Shown here one piece after another: positions 9,220-41,484 of a stretch of DNA of 64,000 nt; position 1 is the first letter of the stretch, and every line of letters starts with the position of its first letter. Below the pieces are notes generated by a model. It was not told the origin of the DNA and did no database searches. It was given only the letters and a program-made list of their open reading frames with translations. The stretch lies in assembly GCA_030748895.1 (NCBI GenBank), contig JASMLC010000006.1:15442-79441 (forward strand), in the 5' to 3' direction. This DNA comes from Candidatus Poseidoniia archaeon (GTDB lineage Archaea > Thermoplasmatota > Poseidoniia > MGIII > CG-Epi1). Both the position numbers and the translations under genes were made by a program.

Positions 9220-9295
9220 GGGCCCGTGGTCTAGGGGTTATGACGTCGCCTTGACATGGCGAAGATCGGCGGTTCAAATCCGCCCGGGCCCACCA
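9220..9295 (+). tRNA. tRNA-Val (anticodon GAC)
   Basis: GGGCCCG acceptor stem pairing with CGGGCCC; T-arm GGCGG-TTCAAAT-CCGCC; anticodon stem TCGCC/GGCGA with loop TTGACAT, giving GAC; encoded CCA. 76 nt. Confidence 0.9.
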
Positions 9296-9314
9296 CACCC
9301 GCAACAGGAAAACG

Positions 9315-10842
9315 GATGAAACCGAAACACACTCTGCCGACCGCCTGCATCGCCCTGTTATTCCTGCTGCCGGCACTGGCCGGTTGCCTGGCGCCAGAGG
9401 ACAAGCGCACCTACGAGCCGGAACCGGGGCCGTTTGACTTCGACGCGCCGATTCCGGTAACGACATGGTACCACTACCCCGGGAGTGTAAGCAGCCCGCA
9501 GGCAATTGATGCGACAAATCCGGCAGCGGTCGCGGCGGCGAATATTACCGCCAACCTGACGGGCGACAGCACGCCCTTTTTCACGAACGCAACCTACTAC
9601 GGCACTGGCTTCGACACCTTCGAGCCGACCATCGGGATTACATCCTCAGGAGCCATTTTCTTCACCAGCTGGAACGGAGCGGGCGACGGCACGCACATCA
9701 TCCGCTCGCTCGACCAAGGACAAACCTGGGAGGACGTTGGACCTTTCCTGGGTGGAGGTGATGATGGTCCGGGACAAACGGCAAACTCCAATGACCCCTA
9801 TATCTATGTTGATAAGTTCACTGACAAACTTGTCAAATTCGACATGCATGCGCTTACCGTAATCAACGTTGAATATTCAACTAATGACGGTCAGACATGG
9901 AGTACGCCTTTCCCAACTCATGGATATGCTGTCCCTCAAGACCATCAGAGTATTGCCTCGATGCCACACTCCAATGCAATTTCAGGAGAGGTAGTCTACG
10001 TTTACTGCATTAATACTGGATCACCTGCAGCTGGGCCTCAATGTTCCCGTTCTATAGATGGTGGACACACATGGGATGCGCAGAGAATAGGTTATCCGTT
10101 AGGGACCTCTCAGTGTTCTGGCCTCCATGGTCATGTTGCAGGCGGGGCTGATGGAGCAGTTTACCGGGGCAACCCTTCCTGCGCAGGCCCTGCAGTCTAC
10201 CGCTCGCTGGATGGCGGGTCCATATGGAGCGAGCACACCATCACAGAGGATGTTGGGATGCAGGATGGATGGCACGCTCACGAAGTTGCCACAGCTGTAG
10301 ACGACGAGGGGAATGTTCACGCTACATGGATTGGTAATGACTTGTTTCCATGGTACGCTTATTCCCGGGATCAGGGAGGTACATGGAGCGACCCGATGAT
10401 GGTTGCAGCCCCGGGTGTCAAAGAAACTGGTTTTCCGACAATATTCGCAGGTTCTGAAGGGCGTGTAGTCGTCGGTTATATTGGTGAAATTAACGACATT
10501 GAGACCAATGCCTCGAACAGCGGTTGGTCTGGTTATATGGCAATTATGACTGACGCCTTCGCCGAGCACCCTCTAATCACGAGTGTAGCTGTGAACCACC
10601 CTGATGATCCTCTGGACATAACCTCTGACTGCGGCAACGTTCGCTGTGGTGGTTTCGGAGATTTCATTGATGTCGAGATTGATGACGAAGGGCGACCATG
10701 GATTGCCCTTGCGCATAATGCCGCGGGTTTCGAGGAAGCTGTTATTGGGACTCTAATGGAAGGCCCAACCCTTTACGGCGATGAAATCACCGACCTGCCT
10801 GTCTTGCCGGTAGGCGGCAGTTCAACCCTCAAAATGGGATAG
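9315..10842 (+). CDS. BNR/Asp-box repeat lipoprotein (secreted, sialidase-like beta-propeller repeats)
   Basis: Track ORF begins at 9256 inside tRNA-Val. Real start is MKPKHTLPTACIALLFLLPALAGCLAPED (signal peptide plus LAGC lipobox). Multiple SxDxGxTW repeats (SLDQGQTW, STNDGQTW, SIDGGHTW, SLDGGSIW, SRDQGGTW). Confidence 0.7.
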
Positions 10843-21169: not shown

Positions 21170-22636
<1,467 letters not shown>

Positions 22637-22662
22637 TTTTACACACTTTTCTAGAAATTTTT

Positions 22663-22882: not shown

Positions 22883-25800
22883 TCACTCGTCGAGCTGCAA
22901 TCTGGTCGCACAACCGGTGCAATTTACTATCAACGGACGTTGTGAGCTGGTCACTTTCAGCATAGTACTGCACTTGGGGCACTGCAGAGTTATGGCCGCC
23001 ATGGCTGCGGCGGGACTGGCTGCTGGTGGAAGAATTGCATCCTGCGAACGCTGGTAGACGAACCAGGTTACACCCAGGCCGCCAACGAGCACCAGCCCCA
23101 CCAACACCAGTATCAGCAGCGGGCTGCCCGTATCGCTGCTGCCGCCCGGAGCGACCGCGGCGCTGCTGGCCGCAACGTCAAAGCGCAGGCTGCCACCATT
23201 ATCGAGTAGCGCTGCCGGACCACCCGCCTCCGCCGGCTGGATGTTGGCCAGCTGCACCTCGATAGTCACGTCGCCCGACATACTTCCCGGCACGTTCCAC
23301 ACCAGTTCAGGATACGCCTCACCGTTGGCCACGATATCGAATGTTCCGATGATATCAGAGTGGCCACCATAGACCACACGCACCTGTCCAGTGGCATCAG
23401 TGCCACCGTCATTGTAGATTGCCATCGAGATTGTGGCAACTTCGCCCGCCGTTGGCTTGGCAGGAGATATTGTGAGGCTGCTCTCATCAAGCAGCAATTC
23501 AGGTGGCTCAGCCACCGTCACGGTCGTGGATTCGTCGATGAACTCCAGCGCTTCGGGGTCCCATAGCCCTTGCTCTTCCTCGTTTACGGAATTGATGTTG
23601 AAGACGCGCGCCTGCAGGGTCCAGTCGCCGTAGAGCAGCTGCCCCATTCCTCCTTGCGATTCTGTGAAACGGACCTGAAATTCGAACAGCCGCTGGCCGT
23701 TTCCGAGGAATTCCTGGCCAGCCCAGTATGTCGGGTCGGCGGTGATGACCCGGGTGCCCTTGACCAGTTTGACTTCGACGCTCGTCAGGACATCGAACGA
23801 ACCGACATTCTGTAGAGTCATGCTGAAATCAACCAGCGAACCGTCCGAAATCTGGTCCGGAGTCCAGCTCACCTCGAGCATGGCGAAGCGTGCCAGTATC
23901 TGCACGTCAAGGTCCAGAAAACGCTCGTCGAGCGTCTTGCCAGTTTCGTTGTCGAGCAGCAGCAGATATAGCCTGTCAATTTCTTTCACAACCCAGTCAG
24001 CACTCCACTTTTTGGGAGTATCTACATCAATCTCGAAGCCCAGGTGTTGCATAATGAGCGGGCCATTGGAATCTGACTCGCGCACCCACAGGTCTACCAG
24101 TCCGCTCCGCTCGCCGCGATTGTCTATTTCGACCGAAACCACATTCGAAATCAGTTCAATAGGCGTAGTCACAAGATAGAAACCATCATTGACAATGTAG
24201 ATGTCGGGATTGGTTGCCGGGATGTCGACATTCACCTCACGATACCAGACACTGGCGCTGGCGGTCGAATCACCGGGGAAGGTTTCGATGACCTGCACTA
24301 TGATGGTGTGCTGTCCCTTCGGGATATCGTACCAGGTTGCCTTAGCTGTCCAGTCATCTCCGTCGGCGTAGACGTTGGTCGAGAAGTTGGCGATGCGATG
24401 CTCGAGGTCCTTGACGTCGTACCAGAACGCGACTTGTACGCGGGCGTTCGCGGCGCCGGTATTGCGCAATTTGGCTGTGATTTCGAGGTCTTCGCCCTGG
24501 CGCGGATTGGAGGGTACCAAATGCAGGCTGCGCAGTTCGACATCGCACTCCTCAGTCTCGATGGCGAGGTTATTCACCAACACGCGTCCCTGCGTCTGCG
24601 AACTGACGTAGAGCGTCGCGATTGCCACCTCATCTCCCCGGTTCTGCGCGTTGGTAACGCGTTTGTTGAGCTGGTCGATCAGGTTTTGATTCGTGATGGT
24701 GAGCGTGACCTCATATTCCACTTCCATGTTTGAAAGCCAGATAACACCCTTACTGTCACTGCTCACGGTAATTGGTATCCGGGCCATCTCAACTCCGTAT
24801 TCATCAACAAACGTGTCCGCATTGGCTAAAGCATCAACAAGGGATGCACGGAATGATTTTCCAGCAGCCCCAGGAGATGAGTCGGAATCCCATCGGACGG
24901 GTGAATTATTATTGTTAAATTCACCTGCCCACTGCCATTCGTACTGCCCACTGGAGCCTATATCGATTTTGGGGTTAAGAGGATAGTCACTGCCTTTGGT
25001 AGTTCTGACGAAAATATCGCTGTCATCCTTACCTGCACCATCAATATCTCCATTATCGCGGAAGGCAAGGTACGTTCGTTCACCTATTGCCAGTGCTGGA
25101 GCCTCGTTACCGAATGTGAGTTCGCCCTCTTCATTATCCGAGACGTGCACGAAATCTGACCAGTTCTGCCCCTGATCCATCGAAAATCGCATGTACATAT
25201 CGAATGTAGTGGCTATGTATCCGCCAAATAGAACCATCTTTTCGGCTGTGACATCATATGTCATGTCATGATAGTAACGGGCAATAGGGGTGGTATTAGT
25301 CTCAAGAAGAGCCCAAGAACCAGTTGTTCCATCAAGCACCCAAGTATCATCAGAATAGTATGGGGCACTAAGTTTGTATCCTCCAAAAACAACAATCAAA
25401 TCATTTTCACGATCATGTTTCATTGCGTGGTATCGCAGGGATTCTGGATGGGTAGTAGATTCCACCATGGTCCAGTTGCCCTCCCGGTACCGCCAAGTGC
25501 TTTCATCGTAACCAACTACGTCGATATATCCACCAAACATCATAATATTACCACTGTGATCACCAGCCATTTTGTGATAACTTCGCTTGCCTGGGTTTAT
25601 TGTAGTGTTAATTTCGTTCCATTTCTGAGTTTGAATGTTGAAGGCCCAAGTATCATTGAAACGCTGATAATAGCCTGTTTCGTTCATGCCGTAGCCACCA
25701 TACAGTATGACATCACCCGTAATATTGTCAAAAGCCATGGCGTGCTGGTAACGAGGTGCAGGGCCTCCCGCATCTGGAATCTCTAACCAGAGGTCCCTAT

Positions 25801-28800
25801 CAGCATAGTAAATCCAGGTGTCATTGCGATAAGCGTAAAATCCTGTGTCATTAAGGCCGTACCCACCAAACATTACAATCTGATCGCTATTCCAGTCGTT
25901 GGCCATTGCATGGAAATAACGTGCACTGGGGGTATCCTCACTAAAACTTTCCATCCAATTATTGTTGTTGTAGTAGTAAATCCAGGTCTTGTTGGTATAA
26001 CCTGTGTTAGTTGACCCCCCAAACATCACTGAACTGGTAAAACCAGAAAGTGACACGCCAGTGGCCATTGTGTGATAATAAGTTGGTTCGGGATGGTTGC
26101 TTGGTGTGCGCTCAGTCCAGTTTTGTTCATCAAAATCAAAACCCCACGTATCATCGATACGTCCTGATGCCGGTCTTTCCATCCAGAGCGCATAGAGCAA
26201 TCCGTTTCCAGCCTTGAGACTGGCATAGGTCTGGGCGTTAGACATGTATGGGTCATCATCATCACTTATAACTACGGTAGATTCCCAGGTCGTACCATGG
26301 TCCAGAGAGGCAATCATTACCAGGTCGTAGTCAGCAGTGCCGTCCTTGTCAAAATCACCATAATCTCGCCATGCTACAAAGACACCGGAAGCATCGGCAG
26401 CGAGACAGGGATACATGGAGGATTCTGCAGTTGAATTGGTGATTCTGATGGGCTCGTCCCAATCGTTACCTTGGTTACTGGAACGTGTATAGTGGATTTC
26501 ATAATCAAAACGTTCCCCATCATTATAATATGATTCCCAGGCAATATGAACTTTACCTCCACCTATATCGATTGATGGGCGATAATTACTATCACCATCA
26601 GTTATCCTTTCACCGTAGCCCCAATTTACCCCATAATCGCGTGAAGTACGGACCATTATCTCTGTCCCTTCCCGGTATGCAACGTGAACTCGTGCTCCTT
26701 CAGCAGCGATTACCGGATCATAAGAAAAAGTATCCTCGCGAGTTACTGCTATGGGCTCGCTCCATGACCCCCCCTGGTCGCTGGAATGTGCGAAAGCGAT
26801 GTACCAACCGCCGCCCGTGTCGATCGTACTTGGCACGCTCGCAATCCATATTACATACAGGTGATTACCGGTAGCGACCATTCTTGGCTGATACTGAAAA
26901 TTTCCGTGAGGGTTATAGATTATCTGGTCTCCTTCTTCTGAAATAACACTCGGGTCGCTCCAGGAAGCACCGTTATCATCCGAACGGCGATAAAATATAT
27001 CTCCATCGTCATTGTGAGCATTGTTGCCGTTATCACCTATTTCTCCACCATCCCAATAGATAAGATGCAGATAGTTTTCCGTAGCAGCCAGAGCAGGCAT
27101 GCTTGATTCAATTGATTCATAGTATTGTTCTGAAAGATAGACTGGTTGCGACCAACTTTGTCCCCTATCGCTGCTCTGCGATACAGAAATATCCATATCT
27201 CCACCGGTTCCAGAGGCCGGTTCCCGGTCCCCCCAGGCCATTACCACATCATCACCATCAATGTCTATGCTGGGCCAGTCCCTGGCGACAGAAGCTGCAC
27301 CAGAGTTTGCCTCAACAGGCTCCCCAAAAGAACCTCCACTATTTGTTGATCTTACAACCATAATTCCTGGATCGCCGTCATTCTGTGTCCTTGCCCAAAC
27401 GAGAATCACCTCGCCCTCCGAATCTGCTCTAATCTCGAGTGGATTGTAAGGAAAGGCGTAGAATCCATCATCATTTTCATCCGAAATCAGGTTTATTGCT
27501 CCAAAAGTAAGGCCCCCATTGGATGAACTGCGCATCTGGACTTCATAAGTTCCCCTATTATTAGTGAAATATTCGTACCATCCTACATGAACATAATTAC
27601 TGGCACCCACAGTTGCAACGGCAACCATGGGTCGATAGCCACTATTCTCAGTCCCTGCTTCGTGCATCTGGTAAGGGATGGACCATAATTGGCCATTGTT
27701 AGTAGAACGGCTGTAGGATGTAATGTAACGAGCCAATCCGTCGCTTGTGAAATTATATTCAGTCCATACTGCATGAAGGTTTTCCCCATTTGCTGCGAAA
27801 CGGCATTGGTATGATGTACTGGAACTCGAGGGGGAATTGACTTGCACTGGGTCACTCCAGCTGACACCGCCATCACTGGTGTATCGGTGATAAATATCAT
27901 AGTCAAAACCTGAACCAGACATATTGCCACTATCACTCCACAATAGGTGTAGATTATCACCTTCTTTTACAAGATCATAATCGTATATGTAATTTCCTCC
28001 ATTGGCACGAATAGACTTGAAACTGGACCATGATTCCCCACCATTTACTGAGGTGATCCAGGTCAACTTGTTGGGATATGCGTTGTCTATCCAGCTGAGG
28101 TAGAGCGTACCATCGTCCTCGAATATCCAGGGCATCAGATAGGCTGTTGTAGTACGGCTGAGAAGCTTTGCATTATTCCAGCTTCCATCCGTATAGCTCC
28201 TGAAGATAATGCTGTCATACGTTGTGCTTCGGGTTTCAAGGTCTCCATCATCAAGCCATGCAACAAATATGTCACCGTCTGAATTCCGGGCTACAGCCGG
28301 TGTCTGCGATATGGAGCCGCCATTAGTTTCTGTAGAGGCGAGTTTGTAAGGGTTGAGCTCCCCGGTGCCGTAAGCGTAACCTGTAATGTTCAGGGTGGCT
28401 TCGTGTATAGTTGCGTTGGCAGGAATCAGTATCCCGGCATTGACCTCGTCAGCAGTATGGAACACCGTCGCCTTGCCGGGGCCGCCACTGTCAAAGGTCT
28501 GCTGCATCCCGAGCGCGCCGTATCCCTGCCCGGAATAGCGCCACCTCTCATTACGGACCTGCACCTCGATGTCGGAGGGATACGCCCCGTCAAGCGCTTC
28601 ACCGGTCACTTGCAGCGAGGCAGAGGTGACGGTCGAAGCAGGGAATTCCAGCGTCACCGAGCCGTTGCGGTCCGCTTCGCTGAAGTCGTAAACGACCGAG
28701 TCCAGCTTCTGTTCATACTGAGTGAATTCGCTGGTGGTTTCAGCTCCAGCCAGCAGGGCGAGGTCGGCCCCCAGCAGGCAGAGCACGACGAAGACGGGCA

Positions 28801-28810
28801 GCAGGCGCAT
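22883..28810 (-). CDS. giant cell-surface protein (1975 aa): signal peptide, BNR/Asp-box propeller repeats, Kelch-like repeats, Ig/CARDB-like domains, C-terminal TM helix plus cytoplasmic zinc ribbon
   Basis: MRLLPVFVVLCLLGADLALLAGA signal. At least 10 SxDxGxxW repeats (SVNGGESWS, SDGGVSWSD, SSDRGQSWSQ, SDDNGASWSD, SSDQGGSWSE, SRDYGVNWG, SLDHGTTWES...). Six Kelch-like units (..RY.HAM..D....MFGGYG). C-terminus ...LILVLVGLVLVGGLGVTWFVYQR...CPKCSTML...CTGCATRLQLDE. TTTATA box about 22 nt upstream of ATG (leaderless). Lower GC than core genes. Confidence 0.8.
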   Translation of the reverse strand: MRLLPVFVVLCLLGADLALLAGAETTSEFTQYEQKLDSVVYDFSEADRNGSVTLEFPASTVTSASLQVTGEALDGAYPSDIEVQVRNERWRYSGQGYGALGMQQTFDSGGPGKATVFHTADEVNAGILIPANATIHEATLNITGYAYGTGELNPYKLASTETNGGSISQTPAVARNSDGDIFVAWLDDGDLETRSTTYDSIIFRSYTDGSWNNAKLLSRTTTAYLMPWIFEDDGTLYLSWIDNAYPNKLTWITSVNGGESWSSFKSIRANGGNYIYDYDLVKEGDNLHLLWSDSGNMSGSGFDYDIYHRYTSDGGVSWSDPVQVNSPSSSSTSYQCRFAANGENLHAVWTEYNFTSDGLARYITSYSRSTNNGQLWSIPYQMHEAGTENSGYRPMVAVATVGASNYVHVGWYEYFTNNRGTYEVQMRSSSNGGLTFGAINLISDENDDGFYAFPYNPLEIRADSEGEVILVWARTQNDGDPGIMVVRSTNSGGSFGEPVEANSGAASVARDWPSIDIDGDDVVMAWGDREPASGTGGDMDISVSQSSDRGQSWSQPVYLSEQYYESIESSMPALAATENYLHLIYWDGGEIGDNGNNAHNDDGDIFYRRSDDNGASWSDPSVISEEGDQIIYNPHGNFQYQPRMVATGNHLYVIWIASVPSTIDTGGGWYIAFAHSSDQGGSWSEPIAVTREDTFSYDPVIAAEGARVHVAYREGTEIMVRTSRDYGVNWGYGERITDGDSNYRPSIDIGGGKVHIAWESYYNDGERFDYEIHYTRSSNQGNDWDEPIRITNSTAESSMYPCLAADASGVFVAWRDYGDFDKDGTADYDLVMIASLDHGTTWESTVVISDDDDPYMSNAQTYASLKAGNGLLYALWMERPASGRIDDTWGFDFDEQNWTERTPSNHPEPTYYHTMATGVSLSGFTSSVMFGGSTNTGYTNKTWIYYYNNNNWMESFSEDTPSARYFHAMANDWNSDQIVMFGGYGLNDTGFYAYRNDTWIYYADRDLWLEIPDAGGPAPRYQHAMAFDNITGDVILYGGYGMNETGYYQRFNDTWAFNIQTQKWNEINTTINPGKRSYHKMAGDHSGNIMMFGGYIDVVGYDESTWRYREGNWTMVESTTHPESLRYHAMKHDRENDLIVVFGGYKLSAPYYSDDTWVLDGTTGSWALLETNTTPIARYYHDMTYDVTAEKMVLFGGYIATTFDMYMRFSMDQGQNWSDFVHVSDNEEGELTFGNEAPALAIGERTYLAFRDNGDIDGAGKDDSDIFVRTTKGSDYPLNPKIDIGSSGQYEWQWAGEFNNNNSPVRWDSDSSPGAAGKSFRASLVDALANADTFVDEYGVEMARIPITVSSDSKGVIWLSNMEVEYEVTLTITNQNLIDQLNKRVTNAQNRGDEVAIATLYVSSQTQGRVLVNNLAIETEECDVELRSLHLVPSNPRQGEDLEITAKLRNTGAANARVQVAFWYDVKDLEHRIANFSTNVYADGDDWTAKATWYDIPKGQHTIIVQVIETFPGDSTASASVWYREVNVDIPATNPDIYIVNDGFYLVTTPIELISNVVSVEIDNRGERSGLVDLWVRESDSNGPLIMQHLGFEIDVDTPKKWSADWVVKEIDRLYLLLLDNETGKTLDERFLDLDVQILARFAMLEVSWTPDQISDGSLVDFSMTLQNVGSFDVLTSVEVKLVKGTRVITADPTYWAGQEFLGNGQRLFEFQVRFTESQGGMGQLLYGDWTLQARVFNINSVNEEEQGLWDPEALEFIDESTTVTVAEPPELLLDESSLTISPAKPTAGEVATISMAIYNDGGTDATGQVRVVYGGHSDIIGTFDIVANGEAYPELVWNVPGSMSGDVTIEVQLANIQPAEAGGPAALLDNGGSLRFDVAASSAAVAPGGSSDTGSPLLILVLVGLVLVGGLGVTWFVYQRSQDAILPPAASPAAAMAAITLQCPKCSTMLKVTSSQRPLIVNCTGCATRLQLDE

Positions 28811-28850: not shown

Positions 28851-31800
28851 TCACTCCAGCTTCAGATGGGTCTGGCAGCCCGGACACGCCACGGTCAGCG
28901 GCCGACGCGTGTCTGCAATTTTCAGCTGCGTCTGGCAGCCGGGGCACTGGATGGTTACTGCGGCGGCCGCGGCTGGCGCTACCGGGGCGGCTTGAGGCGC
29001 AGGTTGGGGAGCCGCCGGTGCGGCCGGAGGTGGTGGGGGCGCGGAGGCGACGGGCGGCGCTGCCGGAGCGGGCTCGCCGAGCGCATCTTCCTCGTCAGCA
29101 GGCTGGTCGCCCCCCGTGCGCTGGAAGTAGAAGAAAATTCCGCCCAGCCCAACCAGTAGCATGGCGAAAACCAGCAGGAAAAACGTCAGATTGCCGAGGT
29201 CACCCTCGCCTTCGCTGCCACCACCGGGCTGGGTCACCTTGCCTTTGATGTCGAGCGTGGTGGAAGCGCTGTTATCCTCGGTGCTGGCGCCCTCCATTTC
29301 AGCCGGTGTGATTGATACCAGTTCGGCCTCGAACGGTGTTTCGCCGTCGATATTCGGGCCGACAATCCATTCAATCGTAACATCAGTATCGGCAAAGTCG
29401 CCCGCAACGCTGAACGGAGCGGACTCGATGATGGTGCCGGAGCGAACGAGGTTCACGACGCCGCTTGCGGGCGAATCTCCGCTATTGAGCACCGTGATGG
29501 TGAAGGTGACGGTATCGCCAAAGCTGGGTGTGGAAGGCGAAGCGGTGAATGAGTTAATCGAGAGGTCAGGCGGCTCCGCGACGTTCAGCGTGTAGCTGGT
29601 GTCGATGAAGTGCATTTCTTCCGGGTCCCAGAGGCCTTCGTCAGTGCTATGCTCGGGGCGAACTTCCTTAACGTTCACCTCCAGCGTCCACTGGCCGGTA
29701 AAACCAGAATATTTCGAGGCGTCAAACTCGAAGAGCGGCAGGTTGCCATCCTGCGTCAGGAGCTGGCTCTGCCCGGCGGGGAAAAGCACGTTGGGGAAAT
29801 AATTCGGTGCAACATCCTCCAGCCGGTTGTTGCCGCGCGTCAACGAAATCTCGATGTCGGCCCTGGCATCAAAAGAGCCGCTGTTCTGGATCATAATCTG
29901 CGCATATGCCTCCACACCGTCGGTAAAGATGGTGATCAGGTTCTCGTCGGCGTCCTGCCACTCCACAGAGATGACGTTGAAGTCTACCAGTGTCTGCACC
30001 GAGGGAATCATAAACTCCCGCACATACACGGTGCCGTCGTCGTGGTCAACAACCAGTAACAGTAACTCCTCAACGTCCTTGTCAGCGACCCAGTCAGCAC
30101 TGCGCTGCTTGGTCTCGTCCTCATTAATCTGCACGCCCAGCTCGGAAAGAACGGCAAAGCCGTCCTCATCATCCTCGTATACGTAGATGTCGACTGTCCC
30201 GTACCGGTCGCCGCTATTGTAGAGCTCGACAAGCAGTTCGGTCTCCTCGCCATCAATGGCAGTATCATCAAGCCGGAACGTTTCGACATCGAATGCCGGA
30301 GAAGTTGCCTGGAATTCGTAGTACTGCCGCCAGGTGTTGCCGGCCGTGTCGCTGTCGTCTGGCACCGAGTCGACGATGCTGACAATCAGCTCGTGGCTGC
30401 CGGCGGGCGGGTCCTGCCAGATGGCTGAGACCTGAACATTGCCGCCGGACGGCACGGTTACCGACGACACGTTTCCGAGCTGATTAGACAGAGAAACCTC
30501 ATCATACCAGAAAGCAATCTGGGCAGATACATCTCCGTCCCCATCATTCGAAATAGTCGCGGTAATCGTCAAATCATGGCCTTGGCGCGGAGGGTCGTCA
30601 CTAAGTTGGACCGAATCGATTTCAAGTTCAGCATTGGTCGTTCGGAGATTGAGCTCCTTCAGGACTACGCGCCCCTGCGTGCCGGCGGTTACCGAGATAG
30701 CGGTCTCAACAGTCTCGTCATCCTCGTCAGCATTATTGACCAGTGAGTTGAGCCGGCTCAACAGGGTGGCGCTGCCGAAGACGAGGTCGACGTCGTATTC
30801 CACCGAGAGCGAGTTGAGCCGTACTACTCCTTCGCCATCACTGTGCAACTGTAGCTCAAGCCGTGCCATTTCGACTCCGTACTGGTCCACTTCCGTCTCA
30901 GCTTCTGCCAGAGCGTCGTTAAGTGCGTCCACGAGCGATTTCTGGGCGCCAGGTGAACCACTGTCGCTCCATGTCACTGGCGAATTGTCATCATTCAGCT
31001 CACCACCCCATTGCCAGTCATTACTTCCGTCGCCATCCATATCAATTGAGGGATTGTCGGGATACTCCTCACCCAGAGTTGTGCGCAGGAAAATGTCTGA
31101 ATCATCTGCCCCGGCGCTCGCAATATTTCTTCCATCGGCCCACGCGAAATAGGCACGATTTCCTATCGCTGTGGCAGGCGCCATGTAGTTGTAGCTGGAC
31201 TGGCTGTCACCATTGTATTCTGAAATGGGGAGTATATCCGACCAACTCTCTCCGTCATCCTGAGTAAAACGGAAAAAGTGCTGCCACTCGGTAGTACTGC
31301 CATCGGTCAGGTCCTGCCACGCGACATAAGTGATTCCGTTGCCTGTGACAAGGGCGGGAAAGGTGTAGTAGAAATAGGCGGTGGAATCATCACTGACAAC
31401 AAATGCTTTGTCCCAGGTTACGCCACCATCCTTGGAATGCTTGACAATCACATCGTAATCAGCTACGGCATCACCATCGTAGTCACCATACTCGCGCCAA
31501 GCCACGAACAAACTGTCGTCCTGGCCGCTAACAGAAGGTGAAAGTGATGTAGTGGACGACTCCTCTGTGTCGATTGTCTGGGGCTCGCTCCAGGTCGCAC
31601 CATTATCGTCACTGTTACTGTAAAGAATAGTGTACTGGTTAGTGTTAGTCCAAACCAGCTGGATTTTTCCTCCAGCAAGCGCCATCCAAGGCTGGTCATC
31701 CCAGTCCCCATTATCCGCAGGAACGACTATGTCATCCCAGTTTTGGCCGTAATCGGCAGAATGCCGGAAGGCGATATCATAATCATTCCCACTGCTGTCA

Positions 31801-33956
31801 ACATTCCCGTCTTCAACCCAAGCTATGTAGACGTGCGCGCCCTCCGAAAGAACAAACGGAGCAAACGACCAGTCGTCAGAGCCATGATCGGATATGATGA
31901 ATGGCGTACCCCAGTTTGATCCCCTGTCACTGGATACGGACATCAGGATGTCATAGTCAAGGAGGCTATCCTCGTCGTATAATCCATAATCTACCCAGGC
32001 GACATAGACATAGTCCCCACTAGCGGATATCGAAGGGCGATAATCTGTCTGCTCAACGCTGTTACCATTAGTATCTGCATCTCCATCAAAATGTGAGATT
32101 ACAATGGGGCTGCTCCAACTCTCACCATCATCGCTGGAATGGCGAAAAAATATATCGCCATCATCACCATGGGCATCATTACCGTTGCTATCGGATTGCT
32201 GATTAAGGTCACCTCCATCCCAGTATGCGAGGTACAACGAATCTCCTGAAGTAGCGAGCGCGGGCATCCACGAATCCGCTTCATAGTAATGTTCGGAAAT
32301 CTGATTTACGACTGACCATGAACTGCCTCCATCGCCAGAAGTGGCATAGTGGATGTCCTGCTCACTCGAGGCTCCACCGCTGCTGTCACGGTCCGACCAG
32401 ACCACAGCAATGTCCGAGCCCTCGGCAGTGACCCAAGGTGAGGCGCGGAAGTCAACCTCTACATCGTTATCAATTGTCTCGGGGTCGCTCCAGGTCGTGC
32501 CGCCATTGGAGGAGTCGCTGATAACAATCCGGTAGGGCTGGTCTGCATCCACCGTTGTACGACGCCATGTACTGTAGAACCCCCCGTCGCCATCAGCCGC
32601 GACGGAGACGAACGCAACATTGTTGTCATCGGAAGTTGAGAGGGTACTCTCAGTACCGAAACTGGTTCCCCCGTTCGAGGAAGCTCTTGCCTTGACGGAA
32701 GGCTGGGCGCCAGTCTCGGCGTTGGAATCTATCCATATCACGACCACGCGATTTCCGTCATCGACATCGATGTTGCAATCATTGACGGTACGGTCGACCG
32801 AACTCAGCTGCTGTTGCGTGCCGAAGGTAGTGCCGCGGTTACTGGATTGACGGTACTGGACTGTGTAGTATGCGTTGTCACTGTCATACTCCATCCACAC
32901 CACGTAAACATTACTGCCGCTTACAGCCACTGCAGGGTAGAGGCTGCTCTGATCGCTCGACGAAGACACGAGGGTCGGTGTGCTCCAGCTATCGCCACCA
33001 TCATCGGAGGAAACGACATAGATGTCGGGGTCTGTGCCCTGATTACTCATATTATTGTCATCGGCATAAACCACGTAGACATACCCGTCGGTAGCAGCCA
33101 TGGCAAGACCATAGGTTAGGTTACTCTCATCAAGATCAACTTTCTTGGTCTCGGACCAGCTGCTGCCGCTATTGGTAGATACACGCAAATGAATCTCATC
33201 GCCTTTCACGGTCAATAAGCCATATGATTCCCAAGCCGCGTAGAGGGTTGAGCCATCGCGTGCCAGAGTCTGGTAGTCCAGTATGGGTGAGCTACTGGTG
33301 CCGCTACTGGCGAGTACGACAGCATCATTCCAATTACTGCTGGTGTAGCTACGGAAGAGGATATTCTCGTAGTTCACATCGCTCAGGTTCCCATAATCCT
33401 GCCAGATTACGAATAGGTCATCGCCATTATTGACAACTTTCGGGGCATAACTGACAGAACCACCATTAGTATCGATTGAGGATAATCTGAAATCATCTAA
33501 CTCACCCGAACCATAGGGCAATCCGCTAATGTCGACCGTGGCGTCCGTCACGGTTGCATTGGCCGGAATAAGCATCTCAATCGTATCATCACCGGCGGAG
33601 GGGAAGCTGGCGCTGGCACTGTTGCCGCCGCTGACGAAGAGCTGCTGCCGTCCCAGTTCGCCATAGCCCTTGCCACTGTACCTCCAGGTGCTGCTGCTCA
33701 CCGCGACTTCGATGTCGCTGGCGTAATCGCCGTCGTCATCGGCGCCGCCGCTGATGGTGATTGCTGCCTCGAGCACCTCCGCCCGCGGGAAGAGCAGGCT
33801 GGTCAGCGCATCCTCCTCGCCGCTGGTGAGGTCGAGGCTGACGCTGTCGGTGTACGCGTCGTCACGGTAATACTGCGTGACGGTCTCGCCCATGGCCGGG
33901 ATGTTCAGCACCAGCAGTGCGGCGAGCAAAAGCGAAAACAGGCGTTGGGAGTACAT
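28851..33956 (-). CDS. giant cell-surface protein (about 1700 aa), paralog of 22883..28810 with the same domain order and the same C-terminal TM plus zinc-ribbon tail
   Basis: Track ORF to 34061. Probable start MYSQRLFSLLLAALLVLNIPAMG (ATG about 33956) with TTTAAAA box about 30 nt upstream. Many BNR repeats (SNGGTSFG, SSNGGTTWSD, SGDGGSSWS, SDDGESWSS, SSDRGSNWG, SADYGQNWDD, SDDNGATWSE, SKDGGVTWD, QDDGESWSD). C-terminus ...FFLLVFAMLLVGLGGIFFYFQR-(Pro/Ala-rich linker)-CPGCQTQLKIADTRRPLTVACPGCQTHLKLE. Confidence 0.8.
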   Translation of the reverse strand: MYSQRLFSLLLAALLVLNIPAMGETVTQYYRDDAYTDSVSLDLTSGEEDALTSLLFPRAEVLEAAITISGGADDDGDYASDIEVAVSSSTWRYSGKGYGELGRQQLFVSGGNSASASFPSAGDDTIEMLIPANATVTDATVDISGLPYGSGELDDFRLSSIDTNGGSVSYAPKVVNNGDDLFVIWQDYGNLSDVNYENILFRSYTSSNWNDAVVLASSGTSSSPILDYQTLARDGSTLYAAWESYGLLTVKGDEIHLRVSTNSGSSWSETKKVDLDESNLTYGLAMAATDGYVYVVYADDNNMSNQGTDPDIYVVSSDDGGDSWSTPTLVSSSSDQSSLYPAVAVSGSNVYVVWMEYDSDNAYYTVQYRQSSNRGTTFGTQQQLSSVDRTVNDCNIDVDDGNRVVVIWIDSNAETGAQPSVKARASSNGGTSFGTESTLSTSDDNNVAFVSVAADGDGGFYSTWRRTTVDADQPYRIVISDSSNGGTTWSDPETIDNDVEVDFRASPWVTAEGSDIAVVWSDRDSSGGASSEQDIHYATSGDGGSSWSVVNQISEHYYEADSWMPALATSGDSLYLAYWDGGDLNQQSDSNGNDAHGDDGDIFFRHSSDDGESWSSPIVISHFDGDADTNGNSVEQTDYRPSISASGDYVYVAWVDYGLYDEDSLLDYDILMSVSSDRGSNWGTPFIISDHGSDDWSFAPFVLSEGAHVYIAWVEDGNVDSSGNDYDIAFRHSADYGQNWDDIVVPADNGDWDDQPWMALAGGKIQLVWTNTNQYTILYSNSDDNGATWSEPQTIDTEESSTTSLSPSVSGQDDSLFVAWREYGDYDGDAVADYDVIVKHSKDGGVTWDKAFVVSDDSTAYFYYTFPALVTGNGITYVAWQDLTDGSTTEWQHFFRFTQDDGESWSDILPISEYNGDSQSSYNYMAPATAIGNRAYFAWADGRNIASAGADDSDIFLRTTLGEEYPDNPSIDMDGDGSNDWQWGGELNDDNSPVTWSDSGSPGAQKSLVDALNDALAEAETEVDQYGVEMARLELQLHSDGEGVVRLNSLSVEYDVDLVFGSATLLSRLNSLVNNADEDDETVETAISVTAGTQGRVVLKELNLRTTNAELEIDSVQLSDDPPRQGHDLTITATISNDGDGDVSAQIAFWYDEVSLSNQLGNVSSVTVPSGGNVQVSAIWQDPPAGSHELIVSIVDSVPDDSDTAGNTWRQYYEFQATSPAFDVETFRLDDTAIDGEETELLVELYNSGDRYGTVDIYVYEDDEDGFAVLSELGVQINEDETKQRSADWVADKDVEELLLLVVDHDDGTVYVREFMIPSVQTLVDFNVISVEWQDADENLITIFTDGVEAYAQIMIQNSGSFDARADIEISLTRGNNRLEDVAPNYFPNVLFPAGQSQLLTQDGNLPLFEFDASKYSGFTGQWTLEVNVKEVRPEHSTDEGLWDPEEMHFIDTSYTLNVAEPPDLSINSFTASPSTPSFGDTVTFTITVLNSGDSPASGVVNLVRSGTIIESAPFSVAGDFADTDVTIEWIVGPNIDGETPFEAELVSITPAEMEGASTEDNSASTTLDIKGKVTQPGGGSEGEGDLGNLTFFLLVFAMLLVGLGGIFFYFQRTGGDQPADEEDALGEPAPAAPPVASAPPPPPAAPAAPQPAPQAAPVAPAAAAAVTIQCPGCQTQLKIADTRRPLTVACPGCQTHLKLE

Positions 33957-34015
33957 GCGTGGCCTCGACCCCTCCTGCTCCAACGCCATTTTAAACTTCA
34001 CGCGCTGGCACGACC

Positions 34016-34738
34016 GTGACTGAGCAACTGCACATGGCCTCGTTCGAGGGCACCTACACACGCCAGTTCTCGGCGACGGTCGAGGCGGTCCACCCGGGAA
34101 TCGTCGAGCTGGACCGCACGGCGTTCTACCCGTTCGGCGGCGGGCAGCCGGCCGATACAGGCCGGCTCGAATGGGAGGGCGGCACAGCGAGCGTCGAGGA
34201 CGTACGCAAGCGCAACCGCCTGCGGCACATGGTTGCGGGCGACCTGCCGGAGGTCGGCACGACGGTCGAGGGCGCCCTCAACTGGGAGCGGCGCTACGCG
34301 CACATGAAGATGCACTCCTCACAGCACCTCGTCTCGGCGGTCGTCGACCAGCTCCACGGTGCGCGCACCGTCGGCAACCAGCTTTACGCCGACAAAGCGC
34401 GCATCGATTTCCAGCCGCTGCGGCTCTCCCCCGCGCAGCTATCCGAGGTCGAGGCCGAAGCGAACCGCTACCTTGCGAGGGACTTGCCGGTCACCATCAC
34501 CGAGGGCGAGCGCAGCGAGCTGGAGCAGGACCCGCTGGTGCGCTCGAACCTCGCGCTGCTCCCGCCATCAATCAAACGCCTGCGCGTCATAAGCATCGGC
34601 AACCTGGATACCTGTCCCTGCGCCGGCACGCATGTCCGCTCCCTCGGGGAAATCGGCGAAATCGAGTTCACGAAGCGCGATAACAAAGGCAGCGGCAAGC
34701 AGCGGCTGACGTATGCGCTGCGCGACCCCACCCCTTAA
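34016..34738 (+). CDS. alaX: alanyl-tRNA editing protein AlaX (AlaX-M type, Ser-tRNA(Ala) deacylase)
   Basis: 240 aa; FYPFGGGQP.D.G motif, zinc-binding HSSQHL and CAGTHV motifs of the AlaRS editing domain. GTG start at 34016 in the track; ATG alternative at 34034. Confidence 0.75.
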   Translation: MTEQLHMASFEGTYTRQFSATVEAVHPGIVELDRTAFYPFGGGQPADTGRLEWEGGTASVEDVRKRNRLRHMVAGDLPEVGTTVEGALNWERRYAHMKMHSSQHLVSAVVDQLHGARTVGNQLYADKARIDFQPLRLSPAQLSEVEAEANRYLARDLPVTITEGERSELEQDPLVRSNLALLPPSIKRLRVISIGNLDTCPCAGTHVRSLGEIGEIEFTKRDNKGSGKQRLTYALRDPTP

Positions 34739-34765: not shown

Positions 34766-36094
34766 ATGGTTCTCGACAGCCTCGGCTCCGCCCTTCGCGC
34801 TACGATGCGCAAGATAGCGGGCGCGAGCCATATCTCGCCGGAGCTGGTGAAAGAGCTGGTCCGCGACATCCAGCGGGCGCTGCTGCAGGCGGACGTCAAC
34901 GTCAAGCTGGCGCTGGAACTGAGCAAGCGCATCGAAAGCCGCGCGCTGGAGGAGAAAGCGCCGGCGGGGATGACCGCGCGCGAGCACGTCGTGCGCATTG
35001 TGCACAGCGAGATGGTCGGCGCGCTGGGGGTACCGCGCGAGCTGAAGCCGGGAGCGCAGAAAATCATGCTCGTCGGGCTTTACGGGCAGGGCAAGACGAC
35101 CACCGCCGGGAAGCTGGCGAAATGGTTCCAGCGCAAAGGACTCTCCGTCGGCCTTACGGGGGCGGATGTGCACCGGCCGGCGGCGTTCGAGCAGCTTTCG
35201 CAGCTGGCGGCGCAGCTGAACGTGCCGGTGGCTGGCGGCAGCAGCGACGCGGTCGCGGCCGCCAGTGCCGGGCTCGAGGCGCATTCCGAGCTGGAAGTGC
35301 AGATTTACGATACCGCCGGACGGCACGCGCTCGATGGCGACCTGATTGCCGAGATGAAGGCGGTTGCCAAGGTTATCAAGCCGGACGAAATCCTGCTGGT
35401 GCTCGACGCCACCGTCGGCCAGCAGGCGGGGCCGCAGGCGGCGGCGTTCCACGAAGCGGTCGGCGTTACCGGCGTGGTGCTGACCAAGCTGGACAGCTCC
35501 GCGAAGGGCGGCGGCGCGCTCTCGGCCGTGGCCGCGACCGACGCGCCGGTGATGTTCGTCGGGACTGGCGAGATGCTCGATGCGCTGGAGCGGCTCGAGC
35601 CGGACAGGTTCATCTCGCGGCTGCTCGGGATGGGCGACCTGCAATCACTGCTCGAGCGCGCCGAGGAAGTCATGGACGCCGACAAGGCCGAAGAGACGGC
35701 AAAGCGGCTGCTCTCGGGCAAGTTCAGCCTGGTCGAGATGCGAGAGCAGATGGAGGCGCTGGCGCAGATGGGGCCATTGGGCAAGGTGATGGAGATGATT
35801 CCCGGCATGTCGGCGATGATGAAGGGTAACCAGGCCGACGTAACGCAAAAAAAGCTGGAGCGATTCAAGGTGTTGATGAACTCGATGACGCAGCAGGAAA
35901 TGGAAAATCCGAAGCTCATCAAACGTTCCCGGCTCCAGCGTATCGCCGCCGGTGCGGGCGCCGATGTGCAGGAAGTGCGCGAGCTGCTCGCCTACTACAA
36001 CAAGAGCCGAAAGATGATGTCGTCGCTCGGCGGCAACCGTCGCATGCAGAAGCAGCTGATGCGGCAGATGGAGCGCGGCGAGCTGAATCTCTGA
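34766..36094 (+). CDS. srp54: signal recognition particle protein SRP54
   Basis: 442 aa; N domain, G domain (GLYGQGKTTTAGKLA, DTAGR, TKLD) and Met-rich M domain (MIPGMSAMMKG). Confidence 0.9.
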   Translation: MVLDSLGSALRATMRKIAGASHISPELVKELVRDIQRALLQADVNVKLALELSKRIESRALEEKAPAGMTAREHVVRIVHSEMVGALGVPRELKPGAQKIMLVGLYGQGKTTTAGKLAKWFQRKGLSVGLTGADVHRPAAFEQLSQLAAQLNVPVAGGSSDAVAAASAGLEAHSELEVQIYDTAGRHALDGDLIAEMKAVAKVIKPDEILLVLDATVGQQAGPQAAAFHEAVGVTGVVLTKLDSSAKGGGALSAVAATDAPVMFVGTGEMLDALERLEPDRFISRLLGMGDLQSLLERAEEVMDADKAEETAKRLLSGKFSLVEMREQMEALAQMGPLGKVMEMIPGMSAMMKGNQADVTQKKLERFKVLMNSMTQQEMENPKLIKRSRLQRIAAGAGADVQEVRELLAYYNKSRKMMSSLGGNRRMQKQLMRQMERGELNL

Positions 36095-41328: not shown

Positions 41329-41484
41329 TGGTGGGAGCGCTGGGATTTGAACCCAGATCGGCGGGTCTCACCTATGGTGGCGTGCAGGTCAGCGCTCCAG
41401 TCATTCATCACTGTTCAGCAGACCTATTGCCATCATTCCTGCATAACTGGAGCCCGCAATGATGCCGAGTTACACCACACTCCC
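41329..41484 (-). tRNA. tRNA-Trp (anticodon CCA) with an 80-nt intron (38-nt 5' exon, 80-nt intron, 38-nt 3' exon incl. CCA)
   Basis: Minus-strand acceptor GGGAGTG/CGCTCCC, T-arm CTGGG-TTCAAAT-CCCAG, anticodon stem GCGGG/CCCGC reconstituted only after removing 41367..41446, loop CTCCAGA (CCA anticodon), encoded CCA end. Oligo-T about 30 nt downstream. Confidence 0.75.
41387..41437 (-). ncRNA. C/D box sRNA embedded in the tRNA-Trp intron (C AUGAUGG, D' CUGA, C' UGAUGA, D CUGA)
   Basis: Intron (minus-strand reading) ...aATGATGg-caataggtctg-CTGA-acag-TGATGA-atgactggagcg-CTGA... The D-box guide is complementary to GCTCCAGTT at the 5' exon/intron junction, placing the fifth nucleotide upstream of box D opposite C34 of tRNA-Trp. 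The D' guide matches CAGACC (position 39) of the ligated exons. Confidence 0.7.

Follow-up and report, generated by a model that had tools for sequence, protein, structure and literature searches.

A C-terminal zinc ribbon, predicted to be cytoplasmic, on two giant membrane proteins of a Marine Group III archaeon and on other archaeal proteins

Two adjacent giant genes ending in a zinc ribbon

The window analysed here is a stretch of 64,000 nucleotides (nt) from a Candidatus Poseidoniia archaeon of Marine Group III (MGIII; GenBank:GCA_030748895.1, contig JASMLC010000006.1, positions 15,442 to 79,441 of the forward strand), and our subject is a short cysteine-bearing tail that terminates the products of two of its genes, P1 and P2, which are adjacent on the minus strand with 40 nt between them. 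P1 (22883..28810, -), delimited by its open reading frame (ORF) and translation, encodes a giant protein of 1975 amino acids (aa) with Pfam matches to BNR_2, Kelch and CARDB and with orthologues in MGIII metagenome-assembled genomes (MAGs). From the N-terminus, it consists of a signal peptide (MRLLPVFVVLCLLGADLALLAGA, 28742..28810, -, read from the translation with the hydrophobic segment scored), BNR/sialidase-like repeats, a Kelch propeller, CARDB-like Ig domains, a sole C-terminal transmembrane (TM) helix visible as a hydrophobic segment in the translation (PLLILVLVGLVLVGGLGVTWFVY, 23054..23122, -), stop-transfer residues with a short Pro/Ala linker of 20 aa (QRSQDAILPPAASPAAAMAA, 22994..23053, -) and a zinc ribbon with four cysteines (C4; ITLQCPKCSTMLKVTSSQRPLIVNCTGCATRLQLDE, 22886..22993, -), directly after which comes the stop codon (22883..22885). 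The Kelch beta-propeller (PF24681, E 2e-70) occupies residues about 885-1200, roughly 25210..26160 (-), is set among the BNR repeats and is absent from P2.

P2 (28851..33956, -) encodes a giant protein of 1701 aa when read from Met36, its ORF reaching a GTG at 34061. The GTG start adds 35 residues (33957..34061, -) that are unlikely to be real, and Met36 at 33956 is likely the true start, because a typical signal peptide (MYSQRLFSLLLAALLVLNIPAMG) then results and the length of 1701 aa fits that of a 99%-identical database protein of 1700 aa (P0023). The order is signal peptide, BNR repeats, CARDB/DUF11 Ig domains, a sole C-terminal TM helix (LTFFLLVFAMLLVGLGGIFFYF, 29124..29189, -), stop-transfer residues with a long linker of 55 aa that is acidic at first and then Pro/Ala-rich (28959..29123, -), and a C4 zinc ribbon (VTIQCPGCQTQLKIADTRRPLTVACPGCQTHLKLE, 28854..28958, -), again followed directly by the stop codon (28851..28853). 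In both proteins QRS or QRT stands directly after the helix, ahead of the linker. Each giant is best explained as a type-I membrane protein with a Sec signal peptide, one anchor helix and a C-terminal ribbon; neither is a tail-anchored protein, as the signal peptides are present and the helix ends about 55 (P1) and 90 (P2) residues before the C-terminus.

An earlier note on this DNA had quoted both tails, and they were found exactly on the minus strand at the ends of P1 and P2. Its observation of a CxxC...CxGC module at the end of both proteins holds, as does that of a Pro/Ala-rich tether in P2, but the spacing of 14-15 residues that it gave for the Cys pairs must be corrected to 16 in both proteins (CPxC-x16-CxGC). 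Among the real ORFs of the window, CxxC...CxxC modules are found in the P1 and P2 tails only, and a codon pattern for the module matched two sites of the window, both of them these tails, with 0 expected from 100 shuffles.

Fold, family and signature of the tail

AlphaFold2 modelled the tail as a mini-sheet of four beta strands with the Cys pairs in both hairpin turns (mean pLDDT 78 for the two window sequences and 84 for 71 family members), which is a two-hairpin zinc-ribbon fold like that of the zinc ribbon (ZnR) of ZitP. In a Foldseek comparison with the PDB, the top match was the ZitP zinc finger (2nb9; probability 0.87, E 0.33); the nearest folds were LysW, TMEM55B and ZitP, and the structural neighbours included an archaeal ribosome-bound zinc-finger protein. 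A profile of 72 aligned units, searched against PDB sequences, reached LysW at E 4.6e-5 and, weakly, AgmX/GltJ (E 0.027) and ZitP (E 0.055).

Pfam scans of the isolated tails gave Zn_ribbon_5 (PF13719) as the best family (25.9 bits for P1 and 25.0 bits for P2), and the NCBIfam model MJ0042_CXXC (TIGR02098) headed the list for the P2 tail with 22.7 bits, over its cutoff of 20.9; these family scores fell to about 10 bits when the full-length proteins were scanned. The tail, which the earlier note had not recognised as a described sorting or anchoring signal, has its best family matches in the MJ0042-type zinc finger and in Pfam Zn_ribbon_5/4. All four Cys were invariant in 72 of the 72 aligned units, and 52 of these units matched Zn_ribbon_4 (PF13717), 42 matched Zn_ribbon_5 and 48 matched DUF7560 at E<=0.01. 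DUF7560 (PF24441), a small archaeal zinc-ribbon family, gave the tails 22.6 and 19.6 bits, below its gathering cutoff of 27, and is a related generic ribbon of which the tails are not members. The LysW-like ribbon (PF21344) gave 14-15 bits against a cutoff of 27, so that this likeness is one of fold only. A rubredoxin-like iron site was considered and rejected, as no rubredoxin family was among the best matches listed and as the ribbon has too short a loop and lacks the aromatic core. Since every neighbour is a C4 zinc ribbon, the identity of the tail as a C4 zinc ribbon is secure at the level of the predicted structure, in agreement with the conserved four-Cys fold put forward in the earlier note, though the scores are modest, as expected for 35 residues. 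Its membership in the MJ0042 / Zn_ribbon_4/5 family is borderline.

The signature of the ribbon can be written [VI]-x-C-P-x-C-x-T-x-[LIF]-x-[VI]-x4-R-P-[LIF]-x-[VI]-x-C-P/T-x-C-x3-[LFI]-x-[LI]. The gap between the Cys pairs was 16 residues in 245 of the 293 units, the first Cys was followed by Pro in 93% of them (n=293), and the loop residues Arg15 and Pro16 were present in 83% and 85% of units, respectively. Hydrophobic residues occupy positions 8, 10, 19, 28 and 30, and the non-basic positions T6, P16 and L17 are also kept. In ZitP and GltJ the Cys are at C5, C8, C28 and C31, leaving 19 residues between the pairs (PMC5182065, PMC11135422). Because of its 16-residue spacing and Arg-Pro loop, the ribbon is, judged by sequence, a distinct short-loop subfamily with a near-invariant Arg-Pro of its own, and it differs from the MJ0042 / Zn_ribbon_4/5 family in this shorter Arg-Pro loop, in its C-terminal position and in its frequent tandem arrays.

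Distribution, topology and selection

A degenerate codon pattern (C-P-x-C-x-T-x9-P-x4-C-x-G-C-x-T), scanned over the DNA of 185,579 species with one genome per species, yielded 40 loci. The in-frame matches were all in Thermoplasmatota / Poseidoniia / MGIII MAGs, each 31-32 codons ahead of a stop codon and with 500-1964 upstream codons where the locus extended far enough; the bacterial matches (Streptomyces, Pseudomonas and others) were all out of frame and were discarded as chance occurrences in GC-rich DNA. Loci with the N-terminus present uniformly encoded a signal peptide, an ectodomain, one helix, a Pro/Ala linker and one or two ribbons. At least five unrelated ectodomain types were distinguished, namely P1-like, P2-like, a BNR protein of 1788 aa (L003), two families of ~700 aa and L040; the two ~700-aa families (L019/L039 and L014/18/29/35/37) carry two ribbons and FixG_C/NEW3-type Ig domains. 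Word-index protein searches with the C-terminal 475 aa of P1, the tail profile and a 66-unit ribbon profile returned near-identical fragments only (P0001, P0002 and P0215) and were uninformative because the module is short and diverged. The P1 C-terminus used as query against genome contigs retrieved no related loci, where the degenerate codon pattern succeeded instead. It was also noticed that the public gene call of P0002 (L001 2..188) runs past the P1 stop codon (…LQLDEW…) into the spacer ahead of the 16S rRNA gene, a gene-calling artefact on a short contig.

An exhaustive HMMER search, in which a two-sequence tail profile was compared with 1.84 billion representative proteins, gave 134 clusters at E<=1e-3 and 36 at E<=1e-10, and the last Cys pair lay <=9 residues from the C-terminus in 98 of the 134 (about 73%). 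The largest group, 44 clusters, comprised an ectodomain followed by a helix and ribbons (354-2604 aa, 1-7 ribbons); a small or multi-pass membrane protein with ribbons accounted for 26, C-terminal ribbons with no helix for 28 (12 of >=200 aa and 16 shorter), and other layouts for 21. The classical bacterial layout, an N-terminal ribbon and then a helix, was found in 10 clusters, all of them weak matches. The remaining five clusters had no Cys pairs and were false positives: P0005 (4710 aa; E 3e-41, 19 'stretches' against the tail profile) is repetitive and of low complexity, and four other matches were rejected likewise. P0011, in which an N-terminal hydantoinase-B fragment is joined to a C-terminal ribbon, was left out of the evidence, as its gene call is possibly mis-joined.

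The ribbon is a portable module, present in one to seven copies, that is used by archaea of the Poseidoniia / Marine Group III lineage and by certain others; its carriers include surface proteins, membrane proteins of small size and, in a few cases, soluble signalling proteins. A restriction to paralogous giant exoproteins, as assumed in the earlier note, was not borne out, since the module was also found on Ig-like proteins of 500-700 aa, on small multi-pass proteins and on soluble receiver-domain and tetratricopeptide-repeat (TPR) proteins. Named members of the P1 and P2 clusters came from Candidatus Poseidoniia, Poseidoniales, Thermoplasmatota and Euryarchaeota MAGs, apart from those on a few short contigs that had been binned as Gammaproteobacteria, which we take as mis-binning. 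The contig of a Lys-rich member, P0016, carries the archaeal S12-S7-aEF2-aEF1alpha-S10 operon, from which it follows that the wider family is archaeal at least in part. In databases the carriers are labelled 'hypothetical', 'exo-alpha-sialidase' or 'N-acetylneuraminic acid mutarotase', the tail being ignored.

Two groups of carriers may be singled out. P0032, P0039 and P0050 (L043 3718..11532), of 1900-2600 aa, have a NosD/beta-helix ectodomain and a mid-protein TM helix, and their cytoplasmic part of ~550 aa includes long acidic EAEAVEAEAV-type repeats and has three ribbons at its end. The Lys-rich proteins P0003 (715 aa), P0006 and P0004 have 5-7 ribbons; near identity among the last copies and among their K/P/A-rich linkers indicates a recent tandem amplification of the unit.

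The tail is predicted to lie on the cytoplasmic side of the membrane. A cytoplasmic C-terminus is expected because an N-terminal signal peptide is combined with a single later helix, and the distribution of charges agrees with it: among 133 tail-bearing proteins, a set that includes some redundant cluster members, the mean number of Lys and Arg per 15 flanking residues was 2.44 after the helix and 0.69 before it, with more of them on the tail side in 107 of the 133. Ribbon arrays also terminate soluble proteins, among them the response-regulator receiver protein P0029 (four ribbons) and the TPR protein P0049, and as receiver and TPR proteins are of cytoplasmic types, these provide independent support for a cytoplasmic ribbon. 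The signal peptides and the positive-inside bias are thus in line with the intracellular tail, behind a single C-terminal TM helix, that the earlier note had described, and a tail outside the cell is not what they predict.

As that note had also anticipated, the motif is kept in orthologues, and in the MGIII loci the ribbon is more conserved than the ectodomain. Ribbon and ectodomain identities were 69% and 49.5%, respectively, between P1 and its orthologue, 91% and 45.6% between P2 and its orthologue, and 53% and 30.5% between P1 and P2. In a 96%-identical environmental strain (L002), the last 35 codons of P1 differed at 9 synonymous and 0 non-synonymous positions, and codons 36-82 from the end, which encode the linker and the helix, had 9 non-synonymous differences. 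At the level of these sequence comparisons, purifying selection is shown to be stronger on the ribbon than on the ectodomain. The MAG whose 16S rRNA gene is 98.3% identical also has a P1 orthologue; the tail of this protein matches that of the orthologue in L027, which has an ectodomain only ~50% identical to that of P1, and for the neighbouring solute-binding protein the identity is 58%. The ectodomains thus evolve very fast, and the pattern suggests diversifying selection on these surface proteins.

As to the surroundings, an archaeal 16S rRNA gene (21170..22637, -) is located 245 nt downstream of P1 and stands alone, with no adjacent 23S rRNA or tRNA gene. It is 98.3% identical to that of the MAG 'Methanobacteriota archaeon NP112', 95.5% identical over a partial overlap of 289 nt to that of an MGIII-labelled MAG, and 87-89% identical to those of 'Marine Group III euryarchaeote CG-Bathy1' and a Thermoplasmata MAG. 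Together with the origin of the P1 and P2 cluster members, these identities assign the window to a Marine Group III-type member of the class Poseidoniia, phylum Thermoplasmatota. Upstream of P2, the gene for SRP54 (34766..36094, +) is divergently transcribed. L003 shows the same succession of 16S, giant gene with the tail and SRP54, with one giant gene in place of two, a 16S identity of 88.6% and an SRP54 identity of 79%; in L013 and L011 the 16S gene likewise adjoins a gene with the tail, and the short locus L030 has both features. Elsewhere in the window, a C/D-box small RNA (41387..41440, -) matches Rfam sR3 with 43.4 bits against a gathering score of 41, and a tRNA-Val(GAC) gene (9220..9295, +) overlaps the first 40 nt of an ORF of 528 aa (9256..10842, +), the true start of which is therefore probably further downstream.

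Proposed role and significance

Two relatives of the tail have been characterised. The ZnR of ZitP (PF13719) in Caulobacter crescentus is membrane-tethered and cytoplasmic, binds the polar matrix protein PopZ and alone suffices as a localisation tag (PMC5182065); that of GltJ in Myxococcus xanthus belongs to a trans-envelope adhesion machine and has as binding partners MglB, a cytoplasmic regulator, and its own linker, by which it regulates turnover of the complex (PMC11135422). In ZitP (PDB 2nb9) the ZnR is N-terminal and present as a single copy in a protein of type-II topology with no signal peptide, with a short helix in its loop and also a key Trp35, whereas the tails described here are archaeal, are situated at the extreme C-terminus of proteins with signal peptides, have a spacing of 16 and an Arg-Pro loop with no Trp, and are often in tandem. 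GltJ/AgmX (PDB 7zok) is the founding characterised member of TIGR02098, which ranks first or second among the NCBIfam matches of the tails, and shares with the tails a cytoplasmic zinc ribbon on the flexible linker of a TM protein; its ZnR, however, is N-terminal and single, has the x19 spacing and works with a GYF domain, which the window proteins do not have. The cytosolic tandem zinc-ribbon/RING-like domains of TMEM55B (PDB 8oqh, 9qm9) are N-terminal to TM helices, are unrelated in sequence and lineage and can be compared with the tails by analogy only. LysW, a soluble carrier of ~54 aa that stands on its own, depends for its function on an acidic, substrate-carrying C-terminal tail; the ribbons share its fold but have no such acidic extension.

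To the fold class, the extreme C-terminal position, the predicted cytoplasmic side, the modularity, the basic charge and the strong selection shown for the ribbon, we add the proposal that it may serve as a cytoplasmic docking or address tag, a reading to which we assign a probability of roughly 0.55. By analogy, it is the most economical one, because both characterised relatives are membrane-tethered cytoplasmic modules for docking to proteins. The Sec signal peptide would export the large BNR/Kelch/Ig ectodomain, the single helix would anchor the protein, and the last 35 residues would fold in the cytoplasm as a zinc ribbon on a flexible linker. The ribbon would then bind an acidic cytoplasmic protein shared by its carriers, for which a scaffold or cytoskeletal component is the likeliest candidate, and such docking would couple, cluster or position surface proteins, plus a few soluble signalling proteins, from inside, tandem ribbons adding avidity.

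Several observations weigh against a docking tag. The sequence matches to ZitP (E 0.055) and AgmX (E 0.027) in the PDB are weak; the PF13719 scores of 25-26 bits fall under the cutoff of 29.3 in both tails, and TIGR02098, joint top for the P1 tail, stays at 18.5 bits, under its cutoff of 20.9. Binding of Zn2+ by the four Cys, and the identity of the metal, are predicted from sequence and fold. A gene-neighbourhood search covering the window and loci L043-L048 found no conserved partner gene, only differing housekeeping genes; the intracellular partner that the earlier note had regarded as implied therefore stays conjectural, with no candidate gene linked to the tail genes. Finally, the strong positive charge would suit the binding of lipid or nucleic acid equally well as that of protein.

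This last point leads to the alternative that survives best, although we consider it rather improbable: that basic ribbons, accompanied in some lineages by Lys-rich linkers, bind anionic lipids of the inner leaflet or nucleic acid non-specifically, which would pin the tail to the membrane or tether the nucleoid or RNA to the envelope. The net charge of the ribbon is +4.7 on average across the family and positive in 92%, arrays such as that of P0003 combine seven ribbons with K/P/A-rich linkers, and the structural neighbours include the archaeal ribosome-bound protein mentioned above; moreover, the soluble receiver-domain and TPR carriers could use an array for membrane recruitment. However, the window ribbons and their MGIII orthologues have a charge of only about +2 and uncharged Pro/Ala linkers, the closest characterised relatives bind proteins, and the motif is conserved to the residue, non-basic positions included (T6, P16, L17 and hydrophobic 8/10/19/28/30), which argues for a specific interface.

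It is unlikely that the ribbon is instead a fast-folding, metal-bound knob that merely fixes the C-terminus in the cytoplasm, where it would stop the one helix that anchors a very large and very acidic ectodomain from being dragged out or slipping through the membrane. Such a stopper would need no partner, consistent with the lack of linked partner genes, and would fit the invariable placement of the array at the extreme C-terminus, with one anchor helix and a linker directly ahead of it, as well as the one copy only on the giant proteins; but it would leave unexplained why some carriers have 3-7 copies on long flexible linkers (up to 580 aa), why soluble proteins bear the module and why surface positions, e.g. 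the near-invariant Arg-Pro loop, are conserved. Very little credence can be given to a C-terminal sorting signal that, like PGF-CTERM or PEF-CTERM, would be recognised and cut off by an enzyme of the archaeosortase kind. These signals are likewise C-terminal and lineage-restricted on archaeal surface proteins, but they consist of a motif, a TM helix and a few terminal basic residues, and are removed by archaeosortase, whereas the tail is a folded domain of 35 aa behind a linker of 20-55 aa, so that 55-90 residues follow the helix rather than a short basic stub; in addition, the module occurs in tandem and on soluble proteins, and no NCBIfam sorting-domain model matched the last 120 aa at E<=1. 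The opinion of the earlier note that the tail is neither of these signals was thus upheld. A chance Cys pattern or an extracellular disulfide-bonded stub with no function, for which nothing but the small size of the motif speaks, is hardly credible in view of the absence of expected matches in the window, the 134 and 36 clusters obtained at the two E-value thresholds, the purifying selection, the confident zinc-ribbon model and the positive-inside topology.

Neither the domain class nor the principle of tethering a cytoplasmic zinc ribbon to the membrane is new. Literature searches on zinc ribbons of Marine Group III / Poseidoniales and on MJ0042 turned up no account of the architecture reported here; this applies to the position of the ribbon C-terminal to a type-I anchor, to the Arg-Pro signature with its short loop, to the arrays of up to seven and to the deployment of the module throughout the surface proteome in an archaeal class that is uncultured. 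With these findings the membrane-tethered docking domain of the ZitP/GltJ type would be extended to archaea as well as bacteria, to the C-terminus as well as the N-terminus and to arrays of up to seven as well as single copies. A more far-reaching and only tentative form of the docking proposal is that 'CPxC-x10-RP-x4-CPxC' is a lineage-wide archaeal address tag, by which a set of envelope proteins is physically coupled, with an avidity tuned by copy number, to one cytoplasmic scaffold or cytoskeletal element. If true, the set would range from giant adhesin-like proteins and S-layer-like Ig proteins to membrane proteins of small size, joined by a few signalling proteins of the cytoplasm, and archaea would have in this coupling an equivalent to the integrin tails or focal adhesions and to the ZitP-PopZ system of bacteria.

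The archaea of Marine Groups II and III, which are uncultured, occur in the ocean in abundance, and we know of nothing reported on the organisation of their cell envelope. As the module would mark, by sequence alone, the envelope proteins that are wired to the cell interior, it offers a handle for finding the partner, and since the ribbon is tiny, soluble, easily synthesised and extremely conserved, it would make a practical bait for pull-down. A dedicated HMM would mend the annotation by which the tail is overlooked. The main value of the ribbon may be as an entry point to the coupling between envelope and cytoplasm in marine planktonic archaea.

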